Shown in pieces: positions 3,030 through 16,678 of a stretch of 64,000 nucleotides of DNA. The stretch's first letter is position 1, and each line of letters begins with the position of its first letter. A program made the position numbers and the translations under genes. Source of the stretch: Clostridia bacterium (GTDB lineage: Bacteria > Bacillota > Clostridia > TANB77 > CAG-508); contig JAAWDR010000030.1 of NCBI GenBank assembly GCA_022793875.1, positions 2,869 through 66,868 on the forward strand, given 5' to 3'. The notes under the pieces are model-generated. The model saw only the letters and a program-made list of their open reading frames with translations, made no database searches and was not told the DNA's origin.

Positions 3030-4367
3030 GTGAAAAAATTTAAAAAGGGAACTAATGGGATAACATTAATCGCTTTAATAATAACAATAATAATTTTGAT
3101 ATTATTAGTAGGAATAACAATATCAAGTTTAACAGGAAGTGGATTATTTCAAAAAGCAGAAGATGCTGTAAAAGCAAGTGATAGAGCAAATGTAAAAGAG
3201 CAATTGAAATTAGCAGTAATGGCATCAATAAATGAAGATGGAAATATAGACAAAGATGAATTAAGAAAAGAATTAGAAAAGTTAAAAAATAGAGGTACAA
3301 TAGATAGTTATGAGCAAGGAGAAGAAGATTCGGAGATATTATATACTGCAACAAAAGGAAAAGATTTATATGAAATTAAAGAAAATAGAGAAGTAGAGAT
3401 AAAAGAAAATTATAATAAATTAGATGTAAAAGTAGGAGACTATGTAAATTACACACCAGATAAGCCAACATCAGAACAATTAACAGAATTAAATAGTGAA
3501 ATAAACAACTATTCAGGAAGTTCAGGGCAAAATTTAAGTCAGGCATCAGAAATGAAATGGAGAGTATTAGAAATAGATGAGAAGACTGGAAAACCAACAA
3601 AGTTAATAAGTGGAAAAGAAACAAATGAAAGCTTAAAATTATATGGAGCAAATGGATATAATAATGCAGTATATTTATTAAATAGAGCATGTGAAATATT
3701 ATACAGTAAAAATGGAATAGGCAAAGCAAGAAGTATAACGATAGAAGATTTGGAAGTACATTATAGTGAAGCAGGTAATAATGCAAGAGACACATATAAA
3801 TATAATAATAATACTGCAAATGGAAATAAATATGGAGATATAAGTAGATTTACAGGAAGCAATGCATATTATCCTAAAATATCATTAGAAGAGAACAATA
3901 TAGGAGTAAATACAATGCCATTAGATGAAAATAATAGAAATCCATTAAAAACTGATGGACTAGACATTAGTGAACAAGATAAAATATATACAGGAAATGG
4001 TCAAGCAAATACAAGTGGAATAACATTAAAGCAGACATATTATAGCTTAGGTTCATTATCAGATTTGTCAAAAGCATATGAAGAAAGTATATATTATGAG
4101 CTATTTCATAGTGCAATAAGTGTTTCACATTGGTTAGCATCTCGTAGTGTTATTACATGGGCAGGATATAGTTATTGTGATTTTCGTGCGCGTTATGTTA
4201 ATTATAGTCACCTTAGTGTTCGTAATTTATTTGGTTCTCTTTACTATAATGATGGTTATACAGATAGAATGAGACCAATAGTTTTACTAGAAAATGATAT
4301 TAAAATGGAATGTGAAGGAAAGTTTGAGGACAGTTTATATAGTATATGGAGTTTTGTGAATATATAA
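3030..4367 (+). CDS. prepilin-like N-terminus protein, paralog 1 (C-terminal WLASR...RPIV module)
   Basis: GTG start 8 nt after AAGGAG. N-terminus is MKKFKKGTNG|ITLIALIITIIILILLVGITISSLTG (G then hydrophobic helix, Ala not Glu at +5). Shares a 49-nt identical block with the 4506 gene. Confidence 0.75.
   Translation: MKKFKKGTNGITLIALIITIIILILLVGITISSLTGSGLFQKAEDAVKASDRANVKEQLKLAVMASINEDGNIDKDELRKELEKLKNRGTIDSYEQGEEDSEILYTATKGKDLYEIKENREVEIKENYNKLDVKVGDYVNYTPDKPTSEQLTELNSEINNYSGSSGQNLSQASEMKWRVLEIDEKTGKPTKLISGKETNESLKLYGANGYNNAVYLLNRACEILYSKNGIGKARSITIEDLEVHYSEAGNNARDTYKYNNNTANGNKYGDISRFTGSNAYYPKISLEENNIGVNTMPLDENNRNPLKTDGLDISEQDKIYTGNGQANTSGITLKQTYYSLGSLSDLSKAYEESIYYELFHSAISVSHWLASRSVITWAGYSYCDFRARYVNYSHLSVRNLFGSLYYNDGYTDRMRPIVLLENDIKMECEGKFEDSLYSIWSFVNI
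4128..4262 (+). other. candidate orphan DGR variable region (adenine-depleted patch)
   Basis: About 22% A over about 120 nt versus roughly 45% in the rest of the gene (hand count). Four CGT Arg codons here while flanking Arg codons are AGA. No matching TR in the window. Confidence 0.35.
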
Positions 4368-5120: not shown

Positions 5121-5254
5121 TCTTTTTATATAGTAAAATTAAGATAGCCGTTCGAGCGAAGCGAGTTACGGATATCTTATACAAATGAACGATAGTGAAT
5201 TTGTAATCAAAAGAGAGATAAGTAATAGCGAATTTGTAACAATAAAAAATAAAT

Positions 5255-5312
5255 GAGGGCTGTCCCTTTTGGCTGATTTTTGTGCCAAAAAAGGGCGTCC
5301 CTATTGACACAG
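5255..5312 (+). repeat. Rep-1 element (GAGGGCTGTCCCTTTTGGCTGATTTTTGTGCCAAAAAAGGGCGTCCCTATTGACACAG)
   Basis: Homologous copies at 21993-22046 (+), 21909-21964 (-) and 58309-58376 (+). Ends 12 nt before the smc ATG. Confidence 0.8.
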
Positions 5313-5323
5313 AGGAGTAAAAA

Positions 5324-8300
5324 ATGTATTTAAAAAGATTAGAATTACAAGGATTCAAATCCTTTGCAGATAAAACAATATTAGAACTAAGACCAGGAAT
5401 AACAACAGCAATTGGACCTAATGGTTCAGGGAAAAGCAATATATCAGATGCAATAAGATGGGTACTAGGGGAGCAAAGTATGAAGTCCCTAAGAGGAGCA
5501 AAATCTTTAGATGTTATATTTGCAGGAACGCAAAACAGAAAATCTTTAGGATTTGCAGAAGCATCTTTGGTGTTTGATAATAGTGATGGGGAATTGCCAA
5601 TTGAATATACAGAGGTAACAGTCACAAGAAAGATATATAGAAGTGGAGAAACAGGATATTATATAAATAAAGTTCCATGTAGATTAAAAGATGTATTAGA
5701 ATTGTTTATGGATACAGGGATTGGTAAAGATGGATATTCAATAATTGGACAAGGTAAAATTGATGAAATTCTAAGTAATAAATCAGAAGATAGAAGACAT
5801 ATTTTTGAAGAAGCTGCAGGAATTGTTAAATATAGAACAAGAAAAGAAGAGTCAGAGAAAAAGTTAGAGCATACAAAATTAAATCTTCTTAGAATAAATG
5901 ATATCTTATCTGAAATTGAAGGGAATTTAGAACCATTGCAAATACAAGCTGATAAAGCTAAAAAGTATTTGAATTTGAGAGAAGAATTAAAAAGTATTGA
6001 GATAGGATTATTTGTATACAATATAGAAAAATACAAAAAAGATTTACAAGAGTTGGTACAATCCATAGATGTAATGACATCTCAATGTAAAGATGAAGAA
6101 GAAAAATTAGAAACAGTAAAATCATTAAAAGAAGAACTAAAGACTAATATTGATAAAATTACAGAAGAGATTGAAAGTATGTCTAATATAGGGTTTGAAA
6201 GTAAAAAACAAATCGAAATATTAAATTCAGATATTAATGTAGCAAAAACAAAGATTGCAAATAATAATGAAAACAGTGAAAGATATGCAAAAGAAATTGA
6301 AGAACAAAATGCTAGAATTACAGAACTAAATGAAGAAATTGAGCAAAAAGAGAGTAAGAAAGATAATTTAAAGAAAAACAAAGAAAAGTTTGAGAATGAG
6401 TTAAAGGAAAAACAAGAAGAATTAGATAAATTAACACAAAAACTTTCTTCAAAAGAATTGGAAATTGAAGGATATAAGCAAACAGTAGAACAAAATACTG
6501 ATAAAAAATATGAGTTACAATCAGAAATTAATACACAAAATGTAAATTATCAAAACTATGAAAAAAGAGAAGCACAAATAAAACAAGAAATTCAAGTTAC
6601 AATTTCTGAATTAGATGGAACAAGACTTAATAAAGAAGATATTTATAAACAATTTACTGAAATTCAAAATAAGAAGAATAAAATTCAAAAATCACTAGAT
6701 GATGTAGCAAAACAAAGAGAAGAAGCAAGTAAAAAAATAAAATCTTATGAGAATGATATAAATAACTTAGCTGGTGAGATGAGAATAAAGGAGTCAAGAC
6801 TTAAATTTTTAATTGAAACAGAAAAAGAAAAAGAAGGATATATAAAAAGTGTTAAATCTTTATTGCAAGATTGTGAAAATGTAAAAGATCTAGGAAAAGG
6901 TATGCATGGAGTTTTAGCAAATATTATAGATGTTCCTGATGACTTAGAAACATCAATTGAAATGTGTTTAGGAGCAAGTCTTCAAAATATAGTAACAGAA
7001 ACTGAAGAAGATGCTAAAAAATTAGTTGAGCATCTAAGAAAAAACAATTTAGGAAGAGCATCATTTTTACCAATTTCATCAGTTAAAGGTAAAAAATTAG
7101 ACAAAATTAAAGGAAATGAAAAAGGTGTAATTGGTATTGCATCAGATTTAGTAAAATACAATAAAAAATATGAACAAATTATATTAAATTTACTTGGTAG
7201 GACAGTTATTGTTGATACAATGCAAACAGCTATTAAAGTAGCAAAACAAAATGGATACATATTCAGAATAGTAACAGTTGAAGGGGATTTAATAAATCCA
7301 TCAGGAGCAATAACAGGTGGTTCTGTTGCTAAGAAAACAGTAAACATACTGGGTAGAGGTAAAGAAATTGAAAAGCTAGAAAAAGAAATCAATAACTTAA
7401 AACAAAAAATTCAAAAACTACAAAATGACAAATTAAATTATGAAGAATCAATTGAAGGAATTTTAGAGTTATCAGCAAACTTAGAAAAAGAAATGCAAGA
7501 AATAGATATTACATATGCTACTGAAAAACAAAAGGTTATTTCAATTGATGAAAATATTGAAAAACTAGAAAAACGTTTAGCTAGATTAAAAGAAGAACAA
7601 CAAAGCCTTGAAAAACAAAAAGAAGAAGCAGTATCTTTAAAAGGAAACATACAAGTAGAAATAAATAAAATTGTTGAGCAAAATCAAGAATTATCAAAAG
7701 TTATAACAGAATTTGCTGAACTTAATAAAGATGACCAAAAATATATAGATGATTTAAATTTTGATATAATAAATTTAAAAATTTCTGTATCATCATTTGA
7801 TGAAAGTGAAGCTTCAATTGAAGAAATTAAAGAAAGAATTAATCAAGAATTAGAAAATACAAAAATAAGTATTGAAAATAAAAAGAACCAAATAGAGCAG
7901 ATTGCAATAGAGAATGAAAAGCTAGAAAAATCAATAAATGAAACATTACAAAAAATTGAAGAAATAAAAGCAGAAGTTCAAAACAGTAGTAATAAAATAG
8001 AAGAATTGAAACAACAAAGAACTGAAAAAAGTGAGACACTTTCAAAACAAGAAGATGAAATTACAGACAAATTCAAAGTAATTGAAGATTTAAAAGGTCA
8101 ACTTGTAAAATTAGATGTAAAGAAAACAAAGATAGAAGAAGATATTAATGAAATTTATAATAAGATGTGGGAAGAGTATGAACTTACACCAAATAATGTA
8201 GGAGAATACCAAAGACCAGAGAATGTTCAATTAACACAAAGAAGAGTAAATAGTCTAAGAAATGAAATTAAAGAACTTGGAAGTGTTAATGTAGATTCTA

Positions 8301-10613: not shown

Positions 10614-10775
10614 ATAATTGGCTATAAAATAGGAACTATTTAATAAAAATAATTTATTAAATGGTTCCTATTTTAGTTATAGCGAATTTGCCATAATAAA
10701 AAAGATAATTAGATGTAATAAAAAAGTACAAGCCACATATAATTTAATAATTCATAAGAAAAAGGAGTGAATTTT

Positions 10776-13442
10776 ATGTGGCATACACAAAGAAAAGATG
10801 AAGTTTTAAAAAACTTAGGAACAAATGAAAAAGAAGGTTTAGTAGAAGAAGAGGTAAAAAAAAGGCAAGAAAAAGATGGAAAAAATAGGTTACAGGAAAA
10901 GAAAAAAGACAGTTTTCTAATCAAATTTTTAAAACAATTTAATGATTTTATGATTATCATATTGATAATTGCTTCAATTGTGTCAGCTTTTGTTTCGAAA
11001 ATGCAAGGAGAAAATGACTATGTAGATTCTATTATAATTATTGGAATAGTAGTTTTCAATGCATTAATGGGAGTTATACAAGAAGCAAAAGCAGAAAAGG
11101 CAATTGAATCATTAAAACAAATGACACCTCAAATTGCAAAAGTTATTAGAAATGGCAAAAAAATTGAGATTAATGCTGAAGAATTGGTAAAGGGAGATAT
11201 TATAGAACTAGAAGCTGGAAATTTTGTTCCTGCTGATTGTAGAATTTTAGAAAGTCACAATTTAAAAATAGAGGAATCGTCTTTAACAGGAGAAACAGAG
11301 CCAGCGTTAAAAGATGCAGATATGATTTGTAAAAAAGATATAACACTTGGTGATATGAAAAATTCAGCTTTTATGGCAAGTATTACAGTAAATGGACATG
11401 GAAGAGCGGTAGTTACAGAAATTGGAATGAATACAAAAGTTGGACAAATTGCTAATATGATTATTGAAGATACAGAACCAGAAACCCCATTACAGAAGAA
11501 ATTAGGAGAAGTAGGGAAAATACTTGGATTAGCATGTCTTGTTATTTGTATAATAATATTTGTAATTGGGTTAATTAAACATATAGAACCTGTTGAAATG
11601 TTTATGACTTCTGTTGGACTTGCAGTTGCAGCTATACCAGAAGGTCTTCCAGCAATAGTAACAATTATGCTTTCTATTGGTGTTACAAAAATGGCAAAAA
11701 AGAATAGTATAATTAGAAAATTGCCAGCAGTAGAAACACTTGGAAGTAGTAGTGTAATTTGCTCAGATAAAACAGGAACATTAACTCAAAATAAAATGAC
11801 AGTTGTAGATGTAAAAGGAAAGAATAAAAAATTTATAATAGAATTAGCATCATTATGCACAGATTGTGAGATTTCTGTGGAAAATGGAAATAAGAATGTT
11901 TCTGGAGAACCAACAGAAAAAGCGATTGTAGAAGAAGGTATAAATATTGGTGCTATAAAAAGTGAATTAGAAGTATTGCTACCTAGAATTAATGAAATAC
12001 CATTTGATTCTAACAGAAAAATGATGACAACAATACATAAAATAGGAAATAAATATAGAGTAATAACAAAAGGAGCACCAGATGTTTTACTACAAAAATG
12101 TACAAAAGAAGTTTTAGATATTAATGAAATGAATAATCAATATAGTATAAGAGTGCAAGCTTTAAATATTTCTAAAATACAAAATGATAATAAACAAATG
12201 GCACAAAATGCGTTAAGAGTAATTGCAGTTGCTTATAAAGATGTAGATTATTTGCCAACTAAGATAGACTCGGCAAATATAGAAAATAATTTAACTTTTG
12301 TAGGTCTTATTGGGATGATAGATCCGCCAAGAGATGGAGTGAAAGAGGCTGTAAGGACATGTAAAGAAGCAGGAATAAAGACAGTTATGATTACAGGAGA
12401 TCATTTAGAAACAGCAAGAGCTATAGCTAGAGATTTAGGAATTTTAGAATCAAAAGATAAAGCTATTACAGGACAAGAGTTAGATAAGATGACACAAGAA
12501 CAATTAGAAAAAAATATAAGAGATTATTCAGTGTTTGCAAGGGTAACTCCTGAGCATAAAGTAAGAATTGTAAAAGCATGGCAAAGAAAAGATGCAGTAG
12601 TTGCAATGACAGGAGATGGAGTAAATGATAGCCCAGCATTAAAAAATGCTGATATTGGAATTGCAATGGGAAAAAATGGTACAGATGTTGCTAAAAATGC
12701 AGCTGATATAATCCTTACAGATGATAACTTTGTAACAATAGTAGAGGCTGTAAAACAAGGTAGAAACATATATGATAATATTAAGAAAGCGATACATTTT
12801 TTAATTGCTACAAATATAGGAGAAATAGTAACGATTTTTGTTGGATTGATATTAGGACTAAAATCACCATTACTTGCAATTCAATTATTATGGATAAATT
12901 TGGTTACAGATTCATTACCAGCAATAGCTTTAGGTTTAGAAAAGCCTGAAAAAGATATAATGAATAGGAAACCTGTAAGCCGTAAAAAAGGAATTTTTGC
13001 TGATGGGTTATGGAATAAGATTATTGTAGAGGGTGTAATGATTGGAATTTTAACACTTGTTGCATTTAGTGTTGGTAATAAATATTATGGATTAGAAGTT
13101 GGTAGAACAATGGCATTTTTATCAATAGGTTTATTGGAATTGATACATAGTTTTAATATTAAAAGTGACAAGTCAATATTTGGAAATAATTTATTTGAAA
13201 ATAAATATTTGGTAGGAAGCTTTGTTTTAGGTGTATTTATTCAGGCTATCGTAGTAGTTATACCATTTTTAGCAAATATATTTGAAGTTGTTCCTTTAAA
13301 TTTGACTCAATGGATTATTACTGCTTGTATTTCTATGCTTCCTATTCCAATTGTAGAATTGCAGAAGAGAATGGATGTGAAAAATGGAGTAAGTTTAAGA
13401 AAAAATAACAAAATATATAATTGTATCAGTAAAAAAGTTTAA
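10776..13442 (+). CDS. calcium-translocating P-type ATPase (PMCA/SERCA-like)
   Basis: DKTGTLT phosphorylation site, TGES, TGDHLETA, MTGDGVNDSPALK. ATG at 10776 is preferred (8 nt after AAGGAG) over the GTG at 10767. Confidence 0.93.
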   Translation: MWHTQRKDEVLKNLGTNEKEGLVEEEVKKRQEKDGKNRLQEKKKDSFLIKFLKQFNDFMIIILIIASIVSAFVSKMQGENDYVDSIIIIGIVVFNALMGVIQEAKAEKAIESLKQMTPQIAKVIRNGKKIEINAEELVKGDIIELEAGNFVPADCRILESHNLKIEESSLTGETEPALKDADMICKKDITLGDMKNSAFMASITVNGHGRAVVTEIGMNTKVGQIANMIIEDTEPETPLQKKLGEVGKILGLACLVICIIIFVIGLIKHIEPVEMFMTSVGLAVAAIPEGLPAIVTIMLSIGVTKMAKKNSIIRKLPAVETLGSSSVICSDKTGTLTQNKMTVVDVKGKNKKFIIELASLCTDCEISVENGNKNVSGEPTEKAIVEEGINIGAIKSELEVLLPRINEIPFDSNRKMMTTIHKIGNKYRVITKGAPDVLLQKCTKEVLDINEMNNQYSIRVQALNISKIQNDNKQMAQNALRVIAVAYKDVDYLPTKIDSANIENNLTFVGLIGMIDPPRDGVKEAVRTCKEAGIKTVMITGDHLETARAIARDLGILESKDKAITGQELDKMTQEQLEKNIRDYSVFARVTPEHKVRIVKAWQRKDAVVAMTGDGVNDSPALKNADIGIAMGKNGTDVAKNAADIILTDDNFVTIVEAVKQGRNIYDNIKKAIHFLIATNIGEIVTIFVGLILGLKSPLLAIQLLWINLVTDSLPAIALGLEKPEKDIMNRKPVSRKKGIFADGLWNKIIVEGVMIGILTLVAFSVGNKYYGLEVGRTMAFLSIGLLELIHSFNIKSDKSIFGNNLFENKYLVGSFVLGVFIQAIVVVIPFLANIFEVVPLNLTQWIITACISMLPIPIVELQKRMDVKNGVSLRKNNKIYNCISKKV

Positions 13443-13456
13443 ATAATTAAATTTAG

Positions 13457-13633
13457 GTTTCGATATTTTTTAATATAACATTATCAGATACCCCAAAACT
13501 AAGTTTAATATGGGATTATATTCCAAGAGAATTATCAAAAGAGAATTCAAAATTTGTATATGGGCATGTACTTATATTGTCTTTATTTTTGTCGAAATTT
13601 GCAAAAAGTCTTGAAAAACAAAAAAAGTTATGA
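13457..13633 (+). pseudogene. start-less remnant resembling the C-terminal part of an AAA/DUF4143-type ATPase
   Basis: Hand translation gives ...SDTPKLSLIWDYIPRELSKENSKFVYGHV.... There is no in-frame start codon upstream. Family assignment is from memory only. Confidence 0.3.
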
Positions 13634-13847
13634 GATACTTTAGAAGTAAAATTATTATATTTTTACAAATAAGAACTTTGAAAAAAGAATAATCCATAAA
13701 ATAATATTTAAGTTTTTATAAAGTATATATTTATTTATAAATGATAAAAACTTAAAAATATTATAAAAAATAAGTATATTTATTTGTAAAAATATAAATA
13801 ATAAAAGAAAAAATAGAAATAAGGAACAAAGGAGGAAAAATTATAAA

Positions 13848-15035
13848 ATGAAAAAGCAAAACAAAGGTATAACACTTGTAGCATTAGTAATTACAATTAT
13901 CATATTATTAATTTTAGCGGGAATCTCAATAAGTGCATTAACAGGAAGTGGATTATTCCAAAAGGCAGGAGATGCCAAAAATAGTTATGAAGAAGCAGAA
14001 AGAAGAGAAAATTCAATATTAGGAGAATATGAAAACTATATTGATAATTTAGGAAATGGTGGAAGTACAGGAAGTTTACCATCAAATGCAGAAACAACAC
14101 CATATTTACCAGACTCAAGTAGTAAAATAATAGAAAATTCAAATTTAGAAACAGGATTAGTAGTAGCAGATAAAAATAATAATGAATGGGTATGGATAGT
14201 AGTGCCAAAATCAGTAACAGCAAGTGCAACAACAGATTTAGAAATAGAAAATGCATTACAAACATATGCAACAGATTATAGAAGTTCTTGGACAGATGAA
14301 TGGTATGAAGGATGTGGATTAACAGAAGCACAATATAATGAAAATAAAAGTAAAATGTTGCAAAGTATAAAAGCAAATGGAGGATTTTGGATAAGTAGAT
14401 ATGAAGCAGGAATAGAAGGAAGTGTGCAAAATCCATCTTTAGCAAGAACAGAGCCAGGAGAACTAACAACATCGTCACCAAAGGCAGTAAGTAAGCCAGA
14501 CCATATACCATATAATTGGGTAACATGTAGTCAAGCACAAAATCTAGCAAGTCAAATGAGTCCAGAGACAACAAAAACAAGTAGTTTATTATTTGGAATA
14601 CAATGGGATTTAGTGTGTAAGTACCTAGAGGGAAAAGACGGATTAACAACAGCAGATATAAATGAAGATAGTTCAAGTTGGGGAAATTATAGTAATAATT
14701 CATTAAATATAACAAGTGCAAAAGCTATGGGAGCAGAATTCAATACATCAACATATCAACTAGGAGAGTGGCAAAATGTTACTGAGAAACCAGCAAATAA
14801 ACTAAGTCTATTAACAACAGGAGCATCAATAGGAACTAAGAAGATGAATATATATAATTTTGCAAGTAATGAAGCAGAATGTACATTAGAAAAGGCGACC
14901 AGCAGCAGCGATCCATGTAGCATTAGGGGAGGCATTTACAGCCTTACAGGTTCCGACTATCCAGCTTCTGCTCGCAACGACTATGATCCTTCTAGCGGTA
15001 ACGACGTCATTGGTTTGCGCGTTTCACTTTATTAA
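13848..15035 (+). CDS. DGR variable (target) protein: prepilin-like N-terminus plus FGE/C-type-lectin-fold domain
   Basis: N-terminus MKKQNKG|ITLVALVITIIILLILAGISISALTG. SUMF1/FGE-like motifs GFWISRYEA, NWVTCSQAQNLA, LLFGIQWDLVCKYL, NIYNFASNEAECT, SIRGG, VIGLRVS. The last 47 codons match the TR. Confidence 0.9.
   Translation: MKKQNKGITLVALVITIIILLILAGISISALTGSGLFQKAGDAKNSYEEAERRENSILGEYENYIDNLGNGGSTGSLPSNAETTPYLPDSSSKIIENSNLETGLVVADKNNNEWVWIVVPKSVTASATTDLEIENALQTYATDYRSSWTDEWYEGCGLTEAQYNENKSKMLQSIKANGGFWISRYEAGIEGSVQNPSLARTEPGELTTSSPKAVSKPDHIPYNWVTCSQAQNLASQMSPETTKTSSLLFGIQWDLVCKYLEGKDGLTTADINEDSSSWGNYSNNSLNITSAKAMGAEFNTSTYQLGEWQNVTEKPANKLSLLTTGASIGTKKMNIYNFASNEAECTLEKATSSSDPCSIRGGIYSLTGSDYPASARNDYDPSSGNDVIGLRVSLY
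14892..15034 (+). other. DGR variable region (VR)
   Basis: Gap-free alignment to 16536-16678 (offset 1644). Mismatches fall almost exclusively at TR adenines. Confidence 0.9.
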
Positions 15036-15138
15036 AGTAGGACTGAACTCTAAAGCCGTGACTATAACATTATAAAAAAATTAGTTTTAAAAGTACAGAT
15101 TATGAAAAGAGTAATCTAACGAATTTAATACGTTAGAG

Positions 15139-15206
15139 GTGAAAATTTTTGTTTATCGCTAAATTTGACGAAGTCAAAAGTTTAGCGGTAAAAGAAAAAT
15201 TTTCAC
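15139..15206 (+). other. long imperfect nested hairpin downstream of the VR
   Basis: GTGAAAATTTTTGTTTATCGCTAAA pairs with TTTAGCGGTAAAAGAAAAATTTTCAC (12+3+7 bp). It encloses the inner hairpin TTTGAC-GAA-GTCAAA. Confidence 0.5.
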
Positions 15207-15217
15207 TCAAGCGGTGG

Positions 15218-15242
15218 CGCCACCCAAGCGGTGGCGTTTTTT
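15218..15242 (+). terminator. GC-rich intrinsic terminator between the target gene and the accessory/RT genes
   Basis: CGCCACC-CAAGC-GGTGGCG followed by TTTTTT. Preceded by a direct repeat of CAAGCGGTGGCG that could form an alternative pairing. Confidence 0.6.
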
Positions 15243-15294
15243 GTGCGTTTAGCACAAAGAACGTCACCAAAATAAAAAAAGGAGGTACGCCAAA

Positions 15295-15549
15295 ATGGCA
15301 TTTAGTAAAATGATAGAATTATTACAAAAGAAAGATGAAGGAAAAATAATACTAGTAAATGCAGGAGCATTTTATATAGCAAGAGGAAAAGATGCAGAAC
15401 TAAATACACAAAGAATATATCTAAGAATAATGAAAAATAACAAATGGATAGATGAAAGAAAATTCAGAATAGTAATGGAGCAAATATATGAAATAGGAAA
15501 AATACTAGGAGGACTATATAAACACTATGCCAAAAACAATCCGAAATGA
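15295..15549 (+). CDS. DGR accessory protein candidate (MutS-domain-I-like N-terminus, Avd-like C-terminus)
   Basis: 84 aa. GGAGG lies 9 nt upstream. KIILVNAGAFYIARGKDAE resembles the MutS N-terminal GDFYE..G.DA motif. C-terminal EQIYEIGKILGGLYKHY resembles an Avd helix. Overlaps the RT start by 23 nt. Confidence 0.55.
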   Translation: MAFSKMIELLQKKDEGKIILVNAGAFYIARGKDAELNTQRIYLRIMKNNKWIDERKFRIVMEQIYEIGKILGGLYKHYAKNNPK

Positions 15550-16462
15550 ATTTGAAAAGCATTTAACATATGAAAAATTAATGGAAGCACACAAAAAATC
15601 AAAAAAAGGAAAAGGATACAGAAAAGAAATAATAGAATTTAACTTAAAACAAGAAGAATATATAATATGGTTATTAGAACAATTAAAAACACAGAAATAC
15701 AAACATGGGGGATATACAACATTTTATGTAACAGAACCAAAATTAAGAAAAATAGAAAAATCAAGATACATAGATAGAATAGTACATAGATGGGTAGTAG
15801 ATAACTTTTTAGAACCAGCATTTGTACCACAATTTGTAAATACATCATTTGCATGTCTAAAAAATAAAGGAATGCACAAAGCATGTTTATATGTTCAAAA
15901 CACAATGAAGCACTGTAAAAACATATGGAATGAGCATTATATACTAAAAATGGATGTATCAAAATATTTTGATACTATAGATAAAAAAATATTATTAAAA
16001 ATTATAGAAAAGAAAATAAAAGATAAAAAGCTATTATGGTTATTAAATGAAATAGATCAATTTATAAAACACAAATTACATATAAAATATTATTGTAGAT
16101 ATTTAGATGACAGTATAGTAATAGTAAAAACAAAGCAAGAAGCAAAAGATGCATTAATAAAAATACAAAAATATTTAAAAGAAAATTTAGAGCTAGAATT
16201 AAATAAAAAAACACAAATATTTAAAAATAAACAAGGAGTAAACTTTTGTGGATATAAAATAAATGAATATAGACTAAAAATAAGAGACAAAGGAAAAAGA
16301 AAATTAAAGAAAAAAGTAAAAAAATTAAAAGAACAAATAAAATTAGGGAAAATTACAAGCAAAGAAGCGCATAAATATTTAGCAGGCCATATGGGATATA
16401 TAAAATATGCAAATACAAGAAACTTAGAAAATAAATTATTTTATTTAGAAAGTGAACAATAA
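15527..16462 (+). CDS. DGR-type reverse transcriptase
   Basis: RT motifs FYVTEPKLRKIEKSRYIDRIVHRWV (1), SFACLKNKGMHKA (2), ILKMDVSKYFDTID (3), YCRYLDDSIVIV (5), NFCGYKI (7). The cognate TR/VR pair is adjacent. Confidence 0.9.
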   Translation: MPKTIRNEFEKHLTYEKLMEAHKKSKKGKGYRKEIIEFNLKQEEYIIWLLEQLKTQKYKHGGYTTFYVTEPKLRKIEKSRYIDRIVHRWVVDNFLEPAFVPQFVNTSFACLKNKGMHKACLYVQNTMKHCKNIWNEHYILKMDVSKYFDTIDKKILLKIIEKKIKDKKLLWLLNEIDQFIKHKLHIKYYCRYLDDSIVIVKTKQEAKDALIKIQKYLKENLELELNKKTQIFKNKQGVNFCGYKINEYRLKIRDKGKRKLKKKVKKLKEQIKLGKITSKEAHKYLAGHMGYIKYANTRNLENKLFYLESEQ

Positions 16463-16535
16463 AATATATTTAATATACCAAAAACTAAAAAAGCGAAATT
16501 CAAAATAAAGATTTCAAAATATTAGGGATAAATCG

Positions 16536-16678
16536 AAAACGACCAACAGCAACAATCCATGTAGCAATAGGGGAGGCAATTACAACAATACAGGTTCCAA
16601 CAATCCAGCTTCTAACCGCAACAACAATGATCCTTCTAACAGTAACGACAACATTGGTTTACGCGTTTCACTCTAATA
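16536..16678 (+). other. DGR template repeat (TR)
   Basis: AAY-rich. In the VR frame it reads TTNSNNPCSNRGGNYNNTGSNNPASNRNNNDPSNSNDNIGLRVSL*. Lies 74 nt downstream of the RT stop. Confidence 0.9.

Follow-up and report, generated by a model that had tools for sequence, protein, structure and literature searches.

CLec2/DUF1566-type variable regions (VRs), the class of Legionella LdtA, lie C-terminally and run from a YW(S/L)(S/A)... start to a ...VR(C/P)V end about 45 residues away; Wu et al. (2018) reportedly place them in category d. VRs need not adjoin their retroelement. Remote, non-adjacent DGR targets are known from Treponema denticola and others (Wu et al. 2018, PMC5758913; PMC4891356), and are defined by a match to the template (TR) with A-to-N differences only (PMC5758913). 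A large DGR survey, in which annotated VR regions were systematically C-type lectin folds, was unable to detect targets not adjoining the RT (PMC8144416). Because DGR surveys define targets by TR match, relics of the kind proposed here go uncounted. On pili, the type V tip adhesins of Bacteroides are diversified by DGR (bioRxiv 10.1101/2024.11.15.621889).

Here we describe an adenine-poor patch near the 3′ end of a gene for a pilin-like surface protein, which we hold with good confidence to be a fossil, orphan DGR variable region. The gene lies in the window (the whole stretch of 64,000 nt that was analysed) from a mouse-gut Clostridia bacterium. The features concerned are as follows.

3030–4367, plus strand: prepilin-headed surface protein gene, from the ORF list (445 aa, GTG start, TAA stop)
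3030–3134, plus strand: type IV prepilin-like head, read from the sequence as a short basic leader, Gly and hydrophobic helix (KG, then ITLIALIITIIILILLVGITISS)
3417–4364, plus strand: conserved 316-residue C-terminal domain (residues 130–445), from phmmer, alignment A3 and the AlphaFold2 model
4131–4283, plus strand: segment with homology to the family's DGR variable region (WLASR...RPIV), from the TRs of relatives L033 and L107 and codon columns
4140–4262, plus strand: adenine-depleted NNY core, read as a putative fossil A-to-N footprint from composition, codon counts and GC
4263–4283, plus strand: site where the VR would have its 3′ constant (IMH-equivalent) end, AT-rich here (GAT AGA ATG AGA CCA ATA GTT)
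13848–16678, plus strand: DGR1, not the cognate element, with target, VR at about 14892–15034, fused accessory ORF, RT and TR at 16536–16678

Like the known remote targets (PMC5758913; PMC4891356), the patch is a C-terminal VR-type segment of a surface protein, apart from any RT/TR cassette in a DGR-bearing genome. Unlike them it has no matching TR, has lost the 3′ recognition end and shows no variation, which points to a relic and not a target.

The gene is intact and keeps a constant position between POR genes and smc in strains from independent gut metagenomes, and in all of them the next gene 3′ is another pilin-like gene, followed by smc. Upstream of the POR genes, strains other than that of the window carry a Y1_Tnp transposase gene and prophage-like genes (amidase, holin) a few kb 5′ of the 445-aa gene (L001:5728-6498 and L002:5728-6498), so that this neighbourhood varies from strain to strain. 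The prepilin-like head has its leader, Gly and helix all in place, with Ala and not Glu at +5. Pfam N_methyl does not match the 445-aa protein, and paralogs score below threshold (up to 18 bits against a cut-off of 21.2); the family profile A3 finds weak PDB matches to type IV pilins including geopilin and PilE1 (E 0.007–0.04). Dozens of genes in the genome have prepilin-type heads. The genome also encodes type IV pilus machinery, namely a prepilin peptidase (Peptidase_A24, C3:82137-82340) and two T2SSE (PilB/PilT-like) ATPases (C3:49752-51810), all above Pfam cut-offs.

A phmmer search with the C-terminal domain returns 1191 cluster representatives at E<=1e-3, from gut Clostridia and nearly all with a prepilin-type head. 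AlphaFold2 models the 316 residues confidently (pLDDT 94.9), and Foldseek of this model finds no match in the PDB or BFVD at E<=0.001; a model of the sub-domain is of low confidence and likewise gives no Foldseek fold match. Sequence searches of Pfam, NCBIfam and the PDB with the domain find no relative, and our literature search on the WLASR motif found nothing relevant. By Foldseek, on which this comparison is based, the VR-bearing domain shows no structural similarity to the C-type lectin/FGE fold of the Mtd, TvpA and AvpA type. The patch module is like the CLec2/DUF1566-type VRs by motif alone; unlike them it has no Pfam DUF1566 match at E<=0.1, and Foldseek pairs it with no C-type lectin structure. 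One member of A3, P0028, seems by eye to be the source of a Pfam FGE-sulfatase match in that alignment; its N-terminal part, which precedes the family's domain in the same polypeptide, reads like an FGE-type lectin domain.

The patch stands apart from its own gene in composition. At 4128–4262 A makes up 23.0% and T 43.7%, against 47.5% and 25.3% in the remaining gene (3030–4367), and sliding composition across the gene shows AT skew falling from +0.3/+0.45 outside to −0.36 at 4140–4259, with abrupt boundaries at about 4140 and 4260. Third codon positions are 73% T and 16% A in the patch, against 30% and 57% in the other codons of the gene. For codon statistics we took a 40-codon core (4143–4262) and compared it with the other 405 codons of the gene. 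NNY codons occupy 33 of the 40 core positions against 139 of 405 elsewhere (34%; Fisher p=4.4e-9), A-free codons 17 of 40 against 31 of 405 (p=3e-8), and Lys, Glu, Gln and Met, 21.7% of residues elsewhere in the gene, are absent from the core (p ~5.5e-5). In four-fold boxes the third base is T or A at 12:4 in the core and 15:91 elsewhere. The four core Arg codons are all CGT and the twelve outside it all AGA, in a genome that uses AGA for 84% of Arg and CGT for 5%; a GCG codon lies at 4188. Among 37,110 in-frame 40-codon windows across the genome, just three other sites combine A<=0.233 with NNY>=0.825: the DGR1 VR itself, and the VR-like C-terminal ends of two paralogs of its target. The depletion of adenine in the patch is thus genuine and well beyond what chance would give.

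Each element of a DGR mutagenesis footprint can be read in the patch: NNY codons at variable sites, an A-free scaffold, and no Lys, Glu, Gln, Met or stop codons. Scaffold residues F385, R388, V390, S393, L395, F401 and S403 of the window protein are retained in A-free codons. A template must avoid adenines where the protein must stay constant, which accounts for the CGT, CTT, GTT, TCT and GCG codons here. An A-containing stretch of four codons inside the patch, ACA TGG GCA GGA, counts against a fossil VR, as does the failure to find any close ortholog beside a cassette.

We then have homologs from 80 loci, taken from uncultured gut Clostridia genomes, for comparison. Across 71 homologous WLASR...RPVV segments, A is 0.10–0.40 (mostly 0.10–0.25) against 0.40–0.51 in the gene body, and NNY codons about 0.8 against about 0.42. 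Three relatives (L033, L078 and L107) have a full cassette of TR, accessory genes and RT directly behind the target gene, and their pairs cover the WLASR...RPV columns, placing the patch at a position homologous to templated VRs. In L033 the VR (10688–10834) and the TR 1 kb downstream (11798–11944) differ at 3 non-A and 23 A sites; in L107 the VR (43–189) and TR (1160–1306) differ at 14 A sites and no others; in L078, whose contig also carries accessory ORFs and an RT, the TR starts near 11715. In L033 and L107 the TRs begin at the TGG of WLASR, stop just past RPV and encode Asn-rich strings, for example WLASRYANCNSTNANFGLRNVNNSNLNGNNMFNSNGTTNSNNNRVRPV. Live cassettes of the family comprise target, MutS-domain-I-like ORF, Avd-like ORF, TR and RT. 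In L033 and L107 the RT gene (RT matches at L033:15033-15704 and L107:1483-2436) is encoded on the other strand from target, accessory genes and TR; in L078 all share one strand. The L033 match covers just residues 1–224 of the L078 RT, and a 462-aa ORF (12959–14347, minus strand) lies between the L033 TR and this match.

The window protein shares its prepilin-type head with L033 and L078 (of the L107 target, just the C-terminal end is present), and with all three the 316-residue domain, the WLASR...RPVV module and the scaffold residues. Unlike the window gene, which is followed by a pilin-like gene and smc, these three have a cassette, 0–3 non-A mismatches and GC-rich VRs. When codon columns from 46 family members are set against the L033 TR, the high-entropy, NNY-rich columns coincide with AAY codons of that TR, and the conserved scaffold columns (W, S, R, V, C, A, F, G, L, R, V, L, G, F, S, R, P, V) carry A-free codons in 50–100% of members, against 0–20% outside the module. 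Columns of the 3′ end are A-free in 60–93% of members (CGC/CTT CGC CCT GTA GTT). In live relatives this end reads CGC GTT/CTC CGC CCC GTA G, with the TR as its source in L033 and L107; the window gene lacks such a GC-rich 3′ end (IMH) common with a TR, and has GAT AGA ATG AGA CCA ATA GTT in its place.

The patch had been picked out by a sequence-only reading of the window, which estimated A at about 22% in the patch and 45% in the rest of the gene, pointed to CGT and GCG codons amid AGA usage, and took the local A loss for a DGR A-to-N footprint in a C-terminal WLASR module where a VR would sit. The counts above agree closely with those estimates, the reading's translation and its downstream GAT AGA ATG AGA are correct, and the sliding-window composition that it proposed gives the drop in skew reported here. 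Its placing of a VR in the WLASR module is matched by the adjacent TRs of L033, L078 and L107, and the footprint is supported by A loss, NNY codons, A-free scaffold codons and the TR/VR pairs of relatives.

Could such a bias arise with no DGR at all, from the amino-acid needs of a beta-rich module, from local selection for T-ending codons, or by chance? Selection for binding can yield surfaces rich in Y, S, G, N and D, and T-rich third positions do occur elsewhere in the genome, where 3 of 6660 windows reach 73%. The fold, however, does not need the bias, since L096, L063, L051 and L034 keep the fold-defining residues with a patch that is A-rich, contains Lys and Glu and has NNY near background. 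The bias in the window gene also matches the AAY codons of relatives' TRs column by column, and Arg as CGT in four of four cases, against AGA in twelve of twelve, within one gene goes beyond protein needs. We find an origin of this kind very unlikely, and return to the fossil VR and the template it would have had.

The genome holds three RT-bearing DGR cassettes, on the DGR1 contig, C51 and C10, each with its own TR/VR pair. Besides DGR1, listed above, the coordinates of the third are:

C10:4315-7264, minus strand (genes): third DGR, with TR at 5238–5352 and VR at 5509–5623

No TR among them fits the patch: that at 16536–16678, which the sequence-only reading had also failed to align, and those on C51 and C10 were all rejected as its template. 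An A-tolerant ungapped scan of the 1.83-Mb assembly (78.6% complete) finds no cognate TR, the best match having 16 incompatible positions in poly-A-like DNA; five overlapping 50-nt sub-window scans and blastn-short of the patch against the same assembly find none either, nor does a degenerate pattern scan of 60 related genomes. TRs of relatives show nothing past distant homology to the patch. Degenerate TR pattern scans of metagenome contigs (two) and of viral contigs matched nothing, the VR itself included, and are weak negatives. No RT of the L078 class above 39% identity occurs in the genome. A cognate TR that differs almost only at template adenines is thus missing from both the assembly and the 60 relatives, an absence that is strong but, at 78.6% completeness, not absolute.

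Ten protein variants, from NCBI, ENA, JGI and Logan assemblies of independent gut metagenomes, are 97–100% identical, and within the patch differ only by S373C (AGT>TGT), A387V (GCG>GTG) and R398H (CGT>CAT), which are ordinary point changes. The patch DNA is identical in 8 independent metagenome contigs, and between the window and L001 only one of 17 differences in the 1338 nt of the gene (1.3%) falls in the patch (0.7%). The patch changes at the background rate, with no hypervariability between strains in the 10 assembled variants or the 8 contigs. As a positive control in the same species, the DGR1 VR (14892–15034), compared with L009–L018, falls into two haplotypes, its 5′ half differing between them at about 12 TR-adenine sites. 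The suggestion of an orphan VR therefore stands in part: no TR was found, and the patch is an orphan, but the variants, with three ordinary point changes, do not show a working, actively diversified VR. The population variation that the sequence-only reading had suggested looking for is missing, as 10 variants and 8 contigs give no A-site pattern, unlike the DGR1 VR; having neither TR nor strain polymorphism, an active VR fails the refutation test which that reading had set for itself.

Base composition offers a measure of age. The patch has a GC of 0.33 and a third-position C/(C+T) of 0.06, against 0.12 for the genome background; live or recent VRs have GC of 0.46–0.59 and C/(C+T) of 0.38–0.53. 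Genome G061 has a single live TR, to which eleven paralog VRs align in register with 11–47 non-A mismatches, and more mismatches go with lower GC (rho −0.78, p=0.003) and higher A (rho 0.88, p=0.0002). These paralog VRs read as a decay series, with the window patch apparently at its old end. Scarce NNC codons could instead reflect an AAT-based ancestral TR and not decay. The bin E14__bin6 holds the live VR and TR of L107 (G061:C66) and at least 11 paralogs (L024, L026, L027, L029, L046, L067), four of them in tandem in L029.

These data also bear on whether the patch might be a live remote VR, diversified in trans from a cognate TR that lies on a phage or plasmid or in the fifth of the genome missing from the assembly. 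In its favour are a completeness of 78.6%, the three DGRs of the genome and the remote targets documented for other DGRs (PMC5758913). Yet at least 8 independent metagenomes and 10 protein variants have the patch in identical or almost identical form, with ordinary changes; the GC-rich 3′ end has given way to AGA ATG AGA CCA ATA, GC and NNC have decayed to background, and 60 relatives yield no TR. We consider a live VR highly improbable on these grounds.

A mosaic gene, into which a short foreign segment of other codon usage recombined with no retroelement mutagenesis in the lineage, would fit the abrupt composition boundaries at about 4140 and 4260 and the patchy spread of the family in the genus, in which 14 of 41 genomes hold members, all at <=38% identity. 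In all homologs, nevertheless, the patch keeps its alignment register relative to the remaining domain, and the nearest relative (L019, 53% identical, on a 1.8-kb contig without context) carries the same patch at the corresponding site. The P0011–P0014 subgroup, at 48–53% identity in alignment A3, also has the xxCDF insertion. Any donor segment would have had to be made as a VR by a DGR; recombination would then change how the patch was inherited, not how it arose, and we give it very little credence as a rival. Inversion of ordinary coding DNA is rejected: reverse-complemented, the patch would show C>G, which local genes do not, and as it stands it is read in frame and aligns with homologs in relatives.

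The putative fossil VR has company in its genome. The TR and VR of DGR1 differ at 22 A sites and 2 non-A sites, with no further target in the genome. Its target (13848–15035, FGE-type VR) is like the window protein in having the same kind of head and a C-terminal VR with NNY codons; unlike it, DGR1 has its own TR and a VR that differs between strains, and the C-terminal domains are unrelated. Against the C51 and DGR1 targets, hhalign of the family shows no relation past the heads. The DGR1 RT lacks about 26 residues that hold the ...IGTMTSQ... motif in the L078 RT; either this deletion is recent or the VR haplotypes are older than it. A second DGR, on C51, has its own TR/VR pair. The C10 DGR adjoins ORFs that resemble phage-tail and lysin genes; TR and VR, 115 nt long, are 91% identical, and the target, of 588 aa, ends in ...GGNFFNGGSAGLFYWYFNYSSSSSYWYIGARLLKYQ. 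Paralogs of the DGR1 target at C52:1660-3177 (plus strand) and on C28 (minus strand, contig end) have GC-rich, A-poor, NNY-rich tails with an FGE-type C-terminus (...MNIYDFAGN..EWTLEK...RGG.Y...FRSTFY). The C28 tail has 25 non-adenine mismatches to the DGR1 TR, and a scan with that TR finds no C52 site within 25. From their composition, both tails look to be further orphan VR-like relics.

From what is observed in the patch, namely its composition, its homology to template-matched VRs and the lack of template and variation, we infer the following history, together with a role for the protein. The ancestor gene would have been a DGR target whose final ~50 codons (WLASR...RPVV) were replaced time and again by cDNA from an Asn-codon-rich TR. 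Random bases opposite template adenines would have left NNY at variable positions, with A-free codons (CGT, CTT, GTT, TCT, GCG) at the scaffold, and such TR-driven mutagenesis would exclude Lys, Glu, Gln, Met and stop codons. The gene would then have parted from its cassette by duplication, transfer or cassette loss, and the VR, frozen as a single fixed sequence, would have evolved at the background rate, C-to-T decay wiping out its GC-richness and its GC-rich 3′ recognition end. The protein probably presents a fixed-specificity, ligand-binding surface on a type IV pilin-like stalk.

Remote DGR targets were already known; what is new here is a TR-less relic recognizable by composition and homology, in an unannotated family without a detectable lectin fold. 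Most family copies appear frozen, with an RT within 10 kb in just 5 of 81 loci, and the genus yields no ortholog of the window protein above 38% identity. We tentatively suggest, as an idea somewhat short of even odds, an undescribed class of DGR variable protein: a 316-residue domain, without a detectable C-type lectin fold or any other known one, on type IV pilin-like stalks of gut Clostridia, in which one live cassette seeds paralogs whose VRs freeze one by one, giving a standing library of fixed specificities with age read from decay, and the window gene as an old member. Like the type V tip adhesins of Bacteroides, the window protein would be a hypervariable-type binding module on a pilus-type protein of a gut commensal; unlike those, its head is type IV-like and not type V, it comes from another phylum, its variable domain is unrelated, and it is frozen where they are active.

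Short-patch composition (A loss, NNY codons, A-free scaffold) can thus flag former DGR targets that TR-based finders overlook. The family suggests that DGRs shape surface-protein repertoires lastingly, by duplication and freezing of copies as well as by ongoing variation, and with it the pilin-like heads of one genome would carry two unrelated kinds of variable module. Pili that display retroelement-made binding sites in gut Firmicutes are an idea that this family makes testable.
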